Notes: a model not told the origin generated them from the letters alone. Shown: positions 46,667 to 52,387, counted from the stretch's first letter. The stretch: 64,000 nt of DNA from a virus (IMGVR_UViG_3300032093_000068:21547-85546); one strand, 5' to 3'. Translations and numbers: made by a program.

Positions 46667-49600
46667 ATGGCTCAACAAAACATTAATCAATATACATATA
46701 AGAAATTTTATGTTAGCCCCAATTTTTTGAGTTTAACCGATATATCATTAGCGTCAGACGAAATTGATTATAATCAGGAGGTTGTATTTTCGCCGTATTT
46801 GATAGCTCAAACTTATGGAAATCGTTTGCCATTTTATTTTGATTTAGATTCAACAGGTACAACTCAGCAACTGATTTTAGATTATGGTAGTTATAACACC
46901 GATAATATAATTGTTTCTGAAAATTATTATAATCCTGATAATTTAGATTTAAGCTGTTTTTCATCACAAACTTCTTGTGATATCGGACTTACTGGTATTG
47001 ATAATGGTCTTGTTACAGGAATGACAGGTCAGTCAATAACATTTACAAACGGACTTTTAGGTGACCTACAAAAATTTGATAGATTAAGTTTTGATAGACG
47101 TTTAAAATTATTTCAAGTTACCGGTTATACAAACCAAAACATTCAGTTTTCAGGAATTTCAGGTCAAACTTTATATGAAATAGTTTCAAAAACAGGTGCA
47201 ACCGAAGGATATTATCAAGAATTATACGGAGGATTTTATCAAGGTTTTTATAAACTTTTTGGTTATGACTACGATATATTTCCAAGTAGAACAAACAAGG
47301 GTTGGGCAGTTGAAATGGTTTTAAAACCAAGGTTATTTAACGAATATTCCCCCTCTTCAGGTCAAACTACATTAAACCAAATTTATCCTCAAAATAAAAA
47401 TACATTTTTTTATTTTGGTACTAGGGCTGAAAATAAATTTGGTCATCATGCAGATGGTCACCCAAATTCAGATAGCGGTTATACAAGGGTAACAGAAGGA
47501 CTTCAAACTTGTTTAAAAACTTGTGCTTGTTCAGATACAGGCACAACAAATTCAAGATGCGTTGATGTGTATGAGCCGTCAGGAGAAACTATTGTGCATA
47601 ATGTTAATTGCGACTGCGGATGTAATAATGTAACAATTGAGGGGTCTCCTGATAAGGATCCGATATTTGATTCAATGTCAAATGCTATTTCTTTTAAATT
47701 GTGCGGAGATGACCCTACTAATCCAAAAATTGGTGTAAGAATTTTAAGATTTACCGGTGATTGCCAAACAACAGGTTCTTGTGAAACATCAGGGCTTACT
47801 TATGTAACAGGTTATACAATAGATGAACATTGCTCCGAAGATGGAATTTATGATTATTGTTTAACCAAAAATTCTGCATATACAACATCAGAACATTGGT
47901 TTTTGGTTGATATTGTTTGGGAACGTTACACTTATTTAGATAATTGCGATTTATATTACAGAGGCGGTTTAGGTGACATTACAAAATTAGTTTACATTGA
48001 TTCGTTAGCAAATAATTCTGTAAATTTAATTAAACCTCCGATTACTCATGAAAATATAACACCTGACCAAATTGAGATTGTTAGATTAAACGACAAATGG
48101 TTACAAGATAAACATTATCGTAATGGTAAATTAAAAATTTACGTTAATGGTAAGATATTTTATCAGGTTGAAAATGTTGAGGAGATTATACCACGAGGAC
48201 TTGACACTTATAAAGAAAGGCAAGTTGGGGTTCCTTTTAATATATCTTGGGGTGGGGGTACATTAGGACTACGTGAAAATCTAACTTTCTCGGCTTGCCC
48301 AACAGGAACAACAAATGTTTATATTCAAGATCCTGAATTATTTCCAAATAACGTATTAAGTGCAACTTCCTTATCATCACTTACAACAAACATACTAATT
48401 GAACCTAATTTTGCCGGAACTTTCGAGGGGGGTATTTCTCAATTTAGGATGTATGTTTCCCCTTTATCTGCTCCTGAAGTAAAACACAATTTTGATATTT
48501 TACAATCAAAATTTAATTTATTTAATCCTGATTGTCCAAACTGCGGATCGACTTGTTTAGAAAATGATTTTGTTTACAGTATTTTACCAACACCAACACC
48601 ATCAAATACTCCAACGGTTACGCCTACTACAACTATAACAAAAACTCCTACTGTAACCCCAAATCCTACAATTACTCCAACAACAACTCAAACTATTCCA
48701 TCAACACCAACTGCAACACCATCTGTTACTCCAAGTATAACAATAACAAGAACTCCTGCCAAAACTCCATTTGCGACACAAACTCCAACAAGAACTGTTA
48801 CACCTACAAATACAGAAACTCCAACTCAAACTGTAACGCCAACATCCACAATTACCCCTACTGTAACTACAACAAATACGAGAACTCAAACTCCTACTCC
48901 AACTATAACTCCGACTGAAACTGTTACACCAACACCAACTGTTACCTCAACTAAAACAAATACTCCAACAAGAACAGTTACACCAACAAATACTGTAACT
49001 CCGACAACTACAAAAACTGTTACTCCTACAAATACAATAACGCCTACTACAACAATTACTCAAACTCCAACAAGAACTCCCGCCAAAACTCCATTTGCGA
49101 CACAAACTCCTACTCGTACATCAACTCCTACAAATACAATAACTCCTACAAGTACAATAACTCCAACAAATACAAAAACTCCAACTGTTACACCAACAAA
49201 TACAAGAACGCAAACTCCTACTTCTACTGTTACACCAACAAATACAAGAACTCAAACTCCTACTATAACTGATACTCCAACAAATACCCCAACAAAAACT
49301 GTTACTCCTACAAATACTATAACTCCGACAACTACAAAAACTGTTACTCCTACAAATACTGTAACTCCAAATCCTGCAACACCAACCGTAACTCCTACAC
49401 CAACTAGAACTCCGGCAAAAACTCCATTTCCAACTCAAACTCCTACAAACACAACAACACCAACAAACACAACAACACCAACAAATACTATTACTACAAC
49501 TCCAACTAAAACTACTACTCAAACGCCAACAAATACAAGAACGCAAACTCCTACTTCTACGCAAACCCCTACCGTTACAATAACTCCAACTAATACGCAA

Positions 49601-52387
49601 ACAAGAACCCAAACTCCTACAATTACAAATACGCAAACGCCAACTAACACTACAACACCAACACCGACAAGAACTGTAACACCAACAAACACTATTACAC
49701 CTACAAATACTGTTACTATAACACCAACTAGAACTCCGGCAAAAGCTCCATTTCCAACTCAAACTCCTACTCGTACATCAACTCCTACAAATACAATAAC
49801 GCCTACCGTTACAATAACTCCAACAAATACAAAAACTCCAACTGTTACACCAACAAATACTAGAACGCAAACTCCAACGCAAACAACAACTGCTACTCAA
49901 ACAACAACTGTAACTCCAACTATAACTGATACTCCGACAAATACACCAACAAGAACTGTAACACCTACAAATACTATAACTCCGACAACTACAAAAACTG
50001 TTACTCCTACAAATACTGTAACTCCAAATCCTGCGACACCAACAGTAACTCCAACGCAAACAAGAACTCCTGCCAAAACTCCATTTCCAACTCAAACTCC
50101 AACAAGAACTGTCACTCCAACAATTACAGATACTCCAACAAATACACCAACAAGAACTGTAACGCCTACAAATACTGTAACTCCGACAACTACAAAAACT
50201 CCAACTGTTACACCAACAAATACAAGAACACAAACCCCAACAACAACTCAAACTCCAACAAACACACCAACAGTTACCTCAACAGTTACCACTTCAATAA
50301 CTCCAACTCAAACAAAAACACCAACAAAAACTCCGACCGTTACTCCTACAAATACAAGAACTCAAACCCCGACAAATACTGTAACATCTACAAGTAGCGT
50401 AACCCCAACATCAACAAAAACGCCAACTGTTACCCCTACAAATACAAGAACTCAAACTCCGACTTCTACCATAACTGCAACTCCAACAAGAACGCAAACC
50501 CCTACCGTTACAATAACTCCAACTAATACGCAAACAAGAACTGTAACACCTACAAATACTGTAACACCTACTACGACAATTACTCCAACACCAACAAATA
50601 CTGTAACACCTACTACGACAATTACTCCGACTCCAACAAGAACTCCGGCAAAAACTCCATTCCCTACTCAAACACCAACAAGAACTGTAACACCTACAAA
50701 TACTGTAACTCCGACATCAACAATCACATCTACTCCAACTAAAACAATTACTCAAACCCCGACAAACACAAGAACGCAAACGCCAACCTCAACTCAAACT
50801 CCAACCACAACATTAACATTAACAAATACATCAACACCAACAAGAACAGTTACTCAAACTCCATCAAACACAATAACTCAAACACCAACAAGAACAGTTA
50901 CTCCGACTAATACTGTAACGCCAACATCATCTATAACAGTAACTCCAACTAGAACTCCGGCAAAAACTCCATTTGCAACACAAACTCCTACAAAAACGCC
51001 AACCCCGACAAACAGTGTTACACCTACAAATACAGTTACACCTACTATCACAAGAACTGTTACTCCGACAAGAACTGTTACTCCGACAAATTCTATAACG
51101 CCAACAAATACCCCAACTAATACATTAACCCCGACAAACACTCCAACTACAACTTTAACCCCAACTGTAACCCCAAGTCAAAGGTCTTCAATATTGGCAG
51201 ATGTATTGTGTAACTGTAGTGGAAATACAGATAGAAATATTTATGTGTTCTATGACGGTTCAGGATCATATACAGATAGTTTATTACAAGATGTTTCATT
51301 AAGTGTGAGAATGTGGTATAGTGGATTGACCTCAACAAGTGGATGGACAGGTAATTTATATGAAATGATATTGTGGGATGAAAGGTGGGTATCTTGGCCG
51401 ATTTATCCGATTATTGGTACTTTATCAGGTGCAACGATCGGTGCTAACTACATAGATAACGGTTCGTTATTATATAGTGGTATAACAAACGATACAGCAG
51501 TTAAACAAGCAATTAACAACGGGTGGGACTTTAACAACCCTGGCAACCCAGATCCATATGGTTCATCAGGTGTTCCGTTTAATCACGTCGCATTAATTGA
51601 TTTTAGCACAGCGGCCAACTTTACACCTGAAACAGATAGTTTTGTTGCTATTTGTGTAATTAACGAATCTTCGCCTGTTTATACGCAAACCGGATCAACA
51701 TTAACTACCGGTAATACAACTCAATTACCATCTCAGTTTTATATTAATAATTCAGGAGTTCAAAAAGATTATAACAATTATTTAACTGCTTGGTCTTACT
51801 TTACAAATTCATTAGGTAAAAAAGTTAATAATTTATTATTTGTTAATCCTAATGGTAATTTAGTGGAAGGATTCCAAACTGTGGAAGCTCAATCATTCCA
51901 GTTTATTTTGGAAGCGTTAGCATTAATTGAAGGACAAACAAGGACTGCGTCATATTTTTCACAATACAACTTTAACGGTGGGGTATGGCCAAATATCAAT
52001 TCTGAATTAGGAACTGATTGGACTTTTGTAACATTACAAACTCAAAATCCATTTACCGGTTATACGTCATTAACGGGTTATACGTCTTTAAATTCATTGA
52101 ACAAAAATGGAGCTGGACTTAGAAACTTTGATTGGGCTGCCGACCCCACTGTAACTGATTTTAGTGCATCTACAATTCAGAATTCATTTAACAAGTTTTT
52201 CAGCGGAGATAGTAGAGATTGTTACTATACTGACTCCAACTTATCGGGACTTACAATCGGTCAGGTAGTCAAATTATCAGGAGAGACAGGATGCTGGCAG
52301 TATTTAGGTGTTCAAGAAACTGCGGTTACTAAAACACCACTCGCGTGGACAGGTTCCACATATACAAATTGCACGACTTGCACATAA
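46667..52387 (+). CDS. Giant putative virion protein: LamG/ConA-like domain + mucin-like Thr/Pro tract + vWA-like domain + Cys tail
   Basis: [10 protein letters not shown]...[22 protein letters not shown]; about 860-aa T/P tract; [10 protein letters not shown] (DxSxS); YTNCTTCT. Confidence 0.7.
48587..51177 (+). repeat. Mucin-like Thr/Pro coding repeat with higher-order periodicity
   Basis: RTPAK(T/A)PF anchors at 48749, 49073, 49406, 49730, 50063, 50639, 50951. Confidence 0.9.

Follow-up and report, generated by a model that had tools for sequence, protein, structure and literature searches.

A hydroxyl-bearing four-residue motif concentrated in fibre-type virion proteins of aquatic T4-like jumbo phages: a candidate O-glycosylation sequon

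The 64,000-nucleotide stretch of viral DNA analysed here (IMGVR_UViG_3300032093_000068:21547-85546, hereafter the window) carries, at positions 46,667 to 52,387, an open reading frame (ORF) for a fibre-like protein in which a four-residue motif recurs far more often than its composition predicts. The motif was noticed as [ST]-G-x-[ST] (the original motif) in an initial annotation made from the DNA sequence, and comparison of homologues sharpens it to [ST]-[GA]-{P}-T (the sharpened motif), a unit in which only Thr serves at position 4 and in which Asp and Asn are not accepted at position 1. In three near-complete relatives of the phage the enrichment is limited to fibre, baseplate-region and surface-repeat proteins, extending in one of them to the non-core part of the sheath. 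The motif may represent a surface sequon for phage-directed O-glycosylation, a reading that we put forward tentatively and with somewhat less than even confidence.

The focal protein consists of an N-terminal globular domain, a Pro/Thr repeat and a C-terminal domain (Table 1). It contains 35 [ST]G dipeptides, and Ser or Thr occupies the fourth motif position (offset +3) in 27 of them, exactly the proportion that the initial annotation had estimated by hand for the non-repeat parts; 24 of these 27 residues are Thr. Conditional binomial tests gave P=1.4e-13 for S/T and P=1.6e-16 for T at +3. Both globular parts contribute, the N-terminal domain with 14/17 sites and the C-terminal domain with 13/18, whereas composition-preserving shuffles (20,000 per domain) yielded means of 1.5 and 1.8, respectively, and reached the observed count in none of the 20,000 cases in either domain. 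The enrichment therefore survives the correction for composition that the initial annotation had proposed as a check. After [ST]G, the frequency of S/T peaked at +3 (0.77) and stayed within 0.06-0.37 elsewhere between offsets -6 and +9; as the signal is confined to this one offset, S/T-rich patches are not its cause. Furthermore, when every residue pair with a gap of 0-5 was scored without bias, G.T came first, with 28 occurrences observed versus 9.0 expected. Merging of adjacent sites left 21 clusters, and the sites are dispersed between residues 63 and 1895 and show no three-residue periodicity; the sharpened motif occurs at 27/45 sites in this ORF. The Pro/Thr repeat (864 residues, 49% Thr) is devoid of Gly and thus contributes no motif copies.

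The N-terminal domain has 709 homologues at E<=1e-3, and in the best 150 of these S/T was found at +3 in 1400 of 2393 [ST]G sites, versus 419 expected. Residue preferences were determined by pooling these 150 homologues with the query, the pooled family counts not being phylogenetically independent. The frequency of Thr at +3 varies with the residue preceding Gly, being 50% after T and 49% after S, as opposed to 8% after N, 7% after D and at most 17% after any other residue. Similarly, where S/T is followed by Gly or Ala, Thr occupies +3 in 49% and 45% of cases, respectively, versus at most 17% for all other residues. Relative to background, position 1 favours S (4.6x) and T (3.4x) and disfavours D and N (0.3x each), position 2 favours G (5.2x) and A (4.2x), position 3 tolerates any residue other than Pro (1/1523 cases), and position 4 favours T (5.2x) with S at 1.1x, V at 0.5x and I at 0.4x. 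Beyond the motif itself, position -1 favours V/M/C/F/L and position 5 favours A/I/L, while K and R are reduced to 0.1-0.3x at positions -1 and +6, and Asp at position -1 is found at 0.5x background (50/1523). The codons used at the motif are varied, with seven, four and six different ones in use at positions 1, 2 and 4, respectively, indicating a protein-level rather than a DNA-level signal. Since Ala at position 2 behaves like Gly, the SALT, TAQT and TATT variants that had been listed for the neighbouring ORF 17126 are genuine instances of the motif; in one column of that protein the query has TATT and 29 of 32 homologues have the G form.

The C-terminal domain of the focal protein is present in 0/150 of the N-domain homologues, indicating that the tips are exchangeable, and the tips of other N-domain homologues carry the motif unevenly and more weakly on average (107/288 versus 60.5 expected). 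Seventeen homologues of the C-terminal domain were found, 15 of them at 75-92% identity (one being partial, with 86% identity over 28% of the query) and one further at 32-33%; most motif sites are retained in these, and a search for longer C-domain homologues found none. No family in Pfam or PHROG matched either domain, tblastn against 50,697 phage records returned no match, and searches of PDB sequences with the N domain, the C domain and one relative's fibre gave nothing useful. The possibility that the focal protein is a homologue of the T4 long tail fibre proteins gp34-gp37 was rejected on the same Pfam, PHROG and tblastn results. The start of the C-terminal domain (51173-51300) combines a strand-helix-strand pattern with YDGSGSY, which we take to recall the DxSxS metal site of vWA domains; no family match accompanied it and the fold model was unusable. 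The Pro/Thr repeat is a long, low-complexity segment dominated by Thr and Pro, as expected of a mucin-like spacer, and looks like a spacer of the mucin type; GC skew is strongly negative at 48-52 kb, coinciding with this repeat.

The window represents the last 64 kb of an 85.5-kb virus contig with a completeness estimate of 28%, and has a G+C content of approximately 30%. Pfam identifies a T4-type terminase, portal, prohead protease and gp23-type capsid protein in it, the last being 40-46% identical to the nearest named capsid proteins (from Flavobacterium phage immuto, Microcystis phage Mel-JY01 and an uncultured 484-kb phage). Close relatives are plentiful among uncultured virus contigs of 220-309 kb, and the patterns of the capsid protein were found in more than 850 stretches. 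Three near-complete relatives of 261-309 kb were compared, namely G001, G003 (complete at 308,574 bp, with 351 ORFs of at least 70 amino acids (aa) scored) and G005, and the gene order of the window is collinear with all three.

Over the whole contig, six ORFs account for 69 of the 82 hits to the original motif, and the remaining ORFs show 13/121. The enzymes encoded at 23.4-43 kb had been described as poor in the motif (about 5 of 40), and a recount agrees (5/39); the sharpened motif is present there at 3/61 sites, versus 2.8 expected. ORF 17126 shows the previously given 5/9 for the original motif (P=0.0095) and 7/13 for the sharpened one (P=7e-5). The major capsid protein (MCP) does carry the motif, as had been stated, at 5/14 sites, although the enrichment is weak (P=0.049). 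Of its five [ST]G-x-[ST] sites, all but one precede the Pfam Gp23 segment (best stretch residues 364-611), and in the MCP family one site is invariant (70/70) while the others vary. The restriction of the Gp23 stretch to these residues, together with phage tblastn matches covering 51-65% of the protein, points to a large additional region in its first half. The 2937-aa protein encoded downstream of the focal ORF shows 12/42 for the original motif, which is not significant, and 14/55 for the sharpened one (P=6e-4). In ORF 61559 the original motif is found at 7/17 sites (P=0.04) and the sharpened motif at 5/21 (P=0.035), and the sites previously placed at its N-terminus occur near the end of the protein as well. 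The 13/13 sites of ORF 63480 fit the earlier description of that ORF as motif-bearing, but derive mostly from one tandem unit with TGDS and TG[LI]T; this type of unit (SGGT-V-TGxT...) fills fibre genes of relatives. Conversely, the portal (1/9), the hub-like ORF 18657 (0/7), ORF 20421 (0/13) and the terminase TerL (0/8) are unenriched, so that the motif marks some virion proteins and not all. The statement that it saturates structural proteins consequently goes too far, and the tail of the portal, which had also been named, contributes a single site in an otherwise unenriched protein. The C-terminus of the portal ORF 6894-8717 (8300-8717) is rich in Pro, Gly and Ala and has two poly-Pro runs straight after its sole TGTT motif. 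The 2937-aa protein (52709-61522) has many Pro/Thr linkers and repeated Cys-rich modules of about 100 residues each, and in G003 it is matched just once, over 322 residues with 37% identity.

The enrichment extends to relatives and to proteins unrelated to those of the window. In 80 loci around the fibre gene, the counts of which are pooled and not phylogenetically independent, downstream fibre genes unrelated to window proteins showed the motif at 892/2477 sites versus 510 expected, while the upstream enzymes of the same loci were unenriched (dUTPase family 11/301, GT-B family 1/134). The hits in relatives' fibres are often located in tandem units such as PL-SGGT-V-TGAT-IFTDGLTANTISATTY or in collagen-like triplets, and in one relative's fibre a Pfam Collagen domain generates motif hits. 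A collagen-like G-X-Y repeat was rejected as a description of the motif in the focal protein, where the sites are dispersed and Gly does not recur at every third residue. At capsid-gene loci, the 17126 family (188/365 observed versus 67 expected), the MCP family (246/827 versus 121), the 14718 family (21/40 versus 9) and the portal family (26/118 versus 13) may be set against the terminase family (5/84 versus 9.7) and the prohead protease family (0/67 versus 8.3).

Scored proteome by proteome, as the initial annotation had suggested, the three near-complete relatives each contain 4-8 ORFs enriched at P<1e-3, and these belong to the same orthologous families in G001, G003 and G005. In G003 this holds for 8 of 351 ORFs, the rest showing 136/1207 versus 94 expected; the enriched ORFs comprise fibre genes, Baseplate_J-region ORFs, a DUF285 protein and a 1195-aa sheath protein, and two more, a SprB-repeat protein and the 17126 homologue, narrowly miss the threshold (P=2e-3 each). 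The other 321 ORFs of G001 gave 74/899 versus 64.5 expected, and the remaining ORFs of G005 gave 109/1666 versus 163.7. All 16 motif sites of the G003 sheath (G003:C1:195968-199555) are N-terminal to approximately residue 750, while its Pfam sheath domains are confined to residues 917-1186, which indicates a large additional N-terminal part. Named phages behaved differently. T4 gp34-38 showed no enrichment in the original motif (12/55 versus 9.9 expected), and the sharpened motif was found in T4 gp34-37 at 1/33, 1/14, 2/8 and 7/40 sites (total 11/95). Counts were 0/19 for P2 gpH and 69/534 versus 64.7 expected for 22 proteins of the structural regions of Flavobacterium phage immuto. A weak trend was observed in the first 99 kb of Pelagibacter phage HTVC008M (118/813 versus 95.5 expected; best ORF 11/43). 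The enrichment is thus specific to the clade and not a general property of phage fibres.

The N-terminal domain was modelled with AlphaFold2 (AF2) from a 74-sequence alignment, giving a confident structure, mostly beta, with a predicted local distance difference test score (pLDDT) of 87.9 and a predicted TM-score (pTM) of 0.88; the corresponding model of the C-terminal domain was unusable (pLDDT 41.8). Foldseek searches of the PDB with the N-domain model gave no match at E<=1e-3, the weak rows above this being of lectin-like or jelly-roll type, with the PilC minor pilin best (E 5.6e-3, TMq 0.21), followed by toxin receptor-binding domains and a pentraxin. The 16 [ST][GA]x[ST] sites of the model, 13 of which fall in blocks with pLDDT >=88, fall into six DSSP patterns, with all-coil at nine sites, '--EE' at three, and 'EE--', '-EEE', 'EEEE' and 'HHHH' at a single site each, so that no single backbone context seems to typify the motif. 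The range of folds is likewise wide: besides the beta-rich globular domain and the unrelated C-terminal domain, it takes in repeats of the fibre and DUF285 kinds and, in a sheath protein, the first 60% of the chain, outside the Pfam sheath domains. At 23 column sets that host the motif, the residues of sequences lacking it are hydrophobic in 18%, 13% and 26% of cases at positions 1, 2 and 4, respectively, versus a background of 37%; this polar replacement pattern suggests that the motif sites are exposed, and the placement of nine of the 16 modelled sites in loops is a further indirect pointer.

Individual sites turn over while their density is kept up. Among 44 full-length N domains the motif occurs in 57 site groups, for which Fitch parsimony on a FastTree tree requires about 262 gains and losses, with at least three changes in 30 of the groups. 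No site group is present in 80% or more of the 44 domains, the maximum being 33/44, and the number of motifs per domain ranges from 0 to 23 with a mean of 12.2. At the lower extreme is P0036, an N-domain homologue at 42% identity, which keeps the core residues of the fold but has the motif at 0/5 sites and mostly polar or charged residues at the aligned positions; the fold accordingly does not need the motif. Its Thr content is low (4.8%) and Lys and Glu are visibly numerous. The genome encoding P0036 was not found among viral or metagenome contigs, where the best matches were 46-59% identical (at most 53% over most of the length), and all 20 of the best matches that were checked bear the motif.

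Candidate enzymes for acting on such a motif are encoded in the glycosyltransferase island on the minus strand at 23.4-43 kb. Pfam and NCBIfam assign to this island three GT2, one GT4, one GT10, one GT11, one GT25 and two GT-B-like glycosyltransferases, along with a nucleotide-sugar dehydrogenase, an epimerase/dehydratase, a pyridoxal phosphate (PLP) enzyme and FkbM methyltransferases (Table 1). The pair 23428/24238 is 53-78% identical to its counterparts in G001, G003 and G005, and its products are candidate modifying enzymes. These two genes, the GT11 gene 36415, the GT2_5 part of 38849 and the GT-B gene 41771 are conserved in all three relatives; the GT25 gene 37234 is conserved in G001 and G003 with no match in G005, and the GT2 gene 38073 is matched only in G005. 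Between the conserved genes, the cassette at 27994-36407 has just two weak or partial matches in the three relatives (35505, 28% identity in G001; 32814, 96 aa in G005), the other six cassette ORFs having no match in them. Conserved collinear edges flanking a variable sugar cassette recall the layout of O-antigen loci.

No particular enzyme of the island could be linked to the motif. Homologues of 38849 and 41771 are located upstream of the fibre gene in 56/56 loci with at least 9 kb of upstream flank, and co-occurrence of both genes in every locus offers no contrast. Among solved structures, GT2 23428 has its closest relative in the peptide glycosyltransferase SunS, a weak and generic match (E=3.7e-4 over approximately 70 residues), and PDB searches with 38849 and 41771 found nothing. 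NCBIfam matches of island proteins were far below cut-offs except for two generic models (29167, nucleotide-sugar dehydrogenase; 32814, FkbM methyltransferase domain), and none of them names a protein glycosyltransferase. A gene matching PF11397 (Skp1 GlcNAc-transferase-like, E=1.4e-69) adjoins fibre and DUF285 genes at G003:C1:222459-223706 and is found in G002, G003 and G004; it is absent from G001 and G005 and so does not belong to the core gene set. Among the annotated genes of the window, none stood out as a candidate kinase or acyltransferase. In the cassette, a nucleotide-sugar dehydrogenase, a CobD/HisC-like PLP enzyme and an adenylate-forming ligase-like protein stand side by side at 29167-32866 (minus strand), a gene set that could make an amide-decorated uronic acid; its NCBIfam matches are under cut-off except for the generic nucleotide-sugar dehydrogenase subfamily model. 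Next to the island, an ORF with NUMOD3 motifs at 43032-43955 (minus strand), probably a homing endonuclease, is present in the window and in G003 (63% identity) and absent from G001 and G005.

Table 1. Features of the window discussed in the text (positions counted from the first nucleotide of the window)
Feature	Coordinates	Strand	Basis
gp23-type major capsid protein (MCP), 626 aa; weak enrichment	12713..14593	+	Pfam Gp23
497-aa protein, family unknown, beside hub-like gene; motif-rich	17126..18619	-	motif counts
GT2 glycosyltransferase, adjoins tail genes	23428-24234	-	Pfam
Weakly GT-B-like protein, adjoins tail genes	24238-25296	-	Pfam
Variable sugar cassette: methyltransferases, nucleotide-sugar dehydrogenase, PLP enzyme; also adenylate-forming ligase-like, FkbM and GT10-like proteins	27994..36407	-	Pfam, NCBIfam
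GT11	36415-37227	-	Pfam
GT25	37234-37857	-	Pfam
GT2	38073-38852	-	Pfam
GT2_5+GT4 fusion	38849-40483	-	Pfam
dUTPase	40487-41110	-	Pfam
Exonuclease	41107-41826	-	Pfam
GT-B	41771-42967	-	Pfam
Focal protein (1906 aa, fibre-like), N-terminal globular domain, residues 1-638	46667..48580	+	counts, homologues, AF2 model
Focal protein, Pro/Thr repeat, residues 639-1502	48581..51172	+	composition
Focal protein, C-terminal domain, residues 1503-1906 (404 residues)	51173..52387	+	counts, homologues
2937-aa protein: PT linkers, DUF5122 beta-propeller, Cys-rich modules; moderate enrichment	52709..61522	+	Pfam
536-aa protein, Asn-rich repeat core; motif at N-terminus and near end	61559..63169	+	counts
Fibre-repeat protein start, cut by contig end	63480..63998	+	weak PHROG match to virion structural protein

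We propose that [ST]-[GA]-{P}-T may be a portable surface motif maintained by selection at high density on outward-facing virion proteins of this clade, namely fibres, baseplate-region and surface-repeat proteins, the non-core sheath of one relative and, weakly, the capsid protein. It would serve as the recognition and acceptor site of a phage-encoded cytoplasmic glycosyltransferase, which would begin an O-linked glycan on virion proteins that are folded or still folding; extension of this glycan might then fall to the enzymes that the strain-variable sugar cassette encodes, and the neighbouring Pro/Thr repeats could be a second, mucin-like target. The presence of conserved glycosyltransferases beside the fibre genes, and of a mucin-like Thr repeat in the same protein, makes O-glycosylation the simplest candidate, and the overall profile of the motif, with its two hydroxyl positions, exclusion of Pro, independence of fold, seeming exposure, narrow distribution, fast turnover and complete loss in one homologue, fits the recognition site of a modifying enzyme better than it fits a structural turn. 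The sequences themselves establish the motif, its specificity, distribution and turnover and its co-occurrence with conserved glycosyltransferase genes; the modification itself, the acceptor hydroxyl and the acting enzyme are things that we only infer. As regards the earlier suggestion of a sequon for an O-glycosyltransferase of the adjacent island, the sequence-level predictions that were tested held; no enzyme, however, has been tied to the motif, and most of the island is variable cassette. A shade more doubtful is the wider proposal that a large clade of aquatic T4-like jumbo phages possesses its own cytoplasmic O-glycosylation system with this sequon, coating fibres, baseplate-region proteins, sheath and capsid with glycans made phage-specific by a swappable cassette.

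Alternatively, the motif could be an unmodified local structural element, a hydroxyl-capped tight turn or beta-arc bounding strands in beta-rich adhesin and fibre domains, which duplication of short fibre repeats and reuse in loops would have spread; this we consider doubtful, though a possibility to be taken seriously. The hydrophobic residue at -1, the Ala/Ile/Leu at 5, the depletion of Lys and Arg and the exclusion of Pro are all in keeping with such an element, as is the start of a strand directly after coil (or nearly coil) [ST]-[GA] at four of the 16 modelled sites. Additionally, four to six positions are conserved in most homologues, the C-domain sites are conserved among close homologues, and in relatives the motif forms part of tandem fibre units, collagen-like triplets and DUF285 repeats. 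However, Asx and Ser/Thr are usually interchangeable in capping turns, whereas here D or N at position 1 is paired with T at +3 in 7-8% of cases versus about 50% for S/T, and the depletion of V and I at position 4 shows that beta-branching alone is not what is selected. Further points against it are the six secondary-structure contexts, the 57 site groups with 262 changes within a single fold, the homologue that dispenses with the motif altogether, and the fibres of T4, P2 and immuto, which are unenriched. That the pattern simply reflects composition, local patches rich in S/T, a signal at the DNA level or common ancestry of a few repeats is highly improbable. The proteins are indeed rich in S, T and G, some sites lie in local duplications and the pooled counts are phylogenetically non-independent; yet the shuffles, the lack of enrichment at any other offset, the varied codons, the 21 separate clusters in the focal protein and the similar enrichment of unrelated protein families in three further genomes all argue against it.

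It is also conceivable, if unlikely, that the motif has a surface function other than glycosylation, either as the target of another modification (phosphorylation or acylation) or as a repeated, hydroxyl-rich motif in direct contact with host polysaccharide or mucus-like polymers. The hydroxyl specificity of both key positions, the restriction to fibre, baseplate-region and surface-repeat virion proteins, the turnover of sites, the weak lectin-like fold matches of the N domain and the failure to connect a particular glycosyltransferase with the motif are in keeping with such a function. Against this, the annotated window genes offered neither a kinase nor an acyltransferase candidate while conserved glycosyltransferase genes are the obvious enzymes at hand, and a four-residue contact motif across many unrelated folds would be an unusual design for a binding surface.

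Returning to O-glycosylation, a number of points weigh against it. We know of no glycosyltransferase with this sequon. The flanks, with hydrophobic residues at -1, A/I/L at 5 and few K/R, look like strand edges, and the strong preference for T over S at position 4 would likewise be in line with a structural role of beta-branching. Many of the hits in relatives are in repeats that may be purely structural (SGGT-V-TGxT units, collagen-like G-X-Y, DUF285), a few sites are positionally conserved (q120 in 55/69, q152 in 56/68 and q381 in 55/68), and the 2937-aa fibre-like protein is only weakly enriched. The suggested exposure of the sites was deduced from substitutions rather than from coordinates. 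Moreover, immuto encodes two GT2 genes yet shows no motif enrichment, the glycosyltransferase genes adjoining the dUTPase could act on DNA instead, and in pelagimyophages glycosyltransferase clusters beside fibre genes have been read as agents of host O-chain modification (PMC7029224).

Virion glycosylation in phages is known from few cases and without a sequence rule; a full-text literature search returned no report of this motif or of any phage glycosylation sequon, and sequon-directed virion glycosylation in phages, if borne out, would to our knowledge be the first described. Were the motif a sequon, metagenomic sequence would reveal directly which proteins of hundreds of uncultured phages are glycosylated, and where, and the large glycosyltransferase islands beside the fibre genes of aquatic T4-like phages would be explained; such islands could encode a variable virion coat, shielding against proteases, grazers or defence systems or tuning adsorption, and not tools for altering the surface of the host. 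Glycoengineering, too, would profit from so compact an acceptor tag and the enzymes that go with it. Should the motif prove structural, it would still give phage adhesins a clade-specific building block of unusual sharpness, one missed by present family libraries.

Several known systems resemble the one proposed here in part. The N-glycosylation sequon N-x-[ST], in which x is not Pro, and the shifting glycan sites of viral envelopes offer a likeness in that a short motif has a hydroxyl at a fixed distance, Pro is excluded at x, Thr is preferred, and sites that seem to lie in surface loops turn over at a maintained density. The present motif differs in having S/T at position 1 (N at 0.3x), G/A at position 2 and i/i+3 spacing, and its chemistry would be O-linked and cytoplasmic; it was rejected as an N-x-[ST] sequon because the probability of T at +3 is 0.08 after N-G versus 0.49-0.50 after S/T-G, and the Pro exclusion is a likeness of form only. 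The general O-glycosylation sequon of Bacteroidota, D-[ST]-[AILVMT], is likewise short and serves many proteins, but it is periplasmic and requires Asp before the acceptor, whereas virion assembly is cytoplasmic and Asp is depleted at -1 (50/1523), for which reason this identity was rejected as well. In chloroviruses, capsid glycosylation is carried out by virus-encoded cytoplasmic enzymes, and the possession of glycosyltransferases and sugar-nucleotide enzymes for glycosylating structural proteins independently of host machinery provides a parallel; these are eukaryotic viruses, however, whose glycans are N-linked and sit at atypical positions of a single capsid protein, and no homology to their enzymes was found here. 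ST/Asx capping turns resemble the motif in that a small residue comes after a hydroxyl one where a turn or strand begins, and are set apart by the non-substitutability of D/N at position 1, the need for Thr at +3 and the varied secondary structure of the motif described here.

Among phages, the pelagimyophages are similar as T4-like aquatic phages with glycosyltransferase and sugar-nucleotide genes beside their fibres in a hypervariable region; they differ in that host O-chain modification was proposed for these genes, with no protein motif reported there (PMC7029224), and in the weak trend of HTVC008M. In mycobacteriophages, virion O-glycosylation has been described with glycans at the C-termini of capsid and tail-tube subunits (Freeman et al. 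2023, as cited in PMC12619734), and phage-encoded glycosyltransferases are thought, according to that citation, to decorate exposed virion proteins, as would be the case here. In contrast to those C-terminal glycans, the candidate sites of the present clade consist of a scattered four-residue motif in fibres, baseplate-region proteins and non-core regions of sheath and capsid, recognised from sequence alone.

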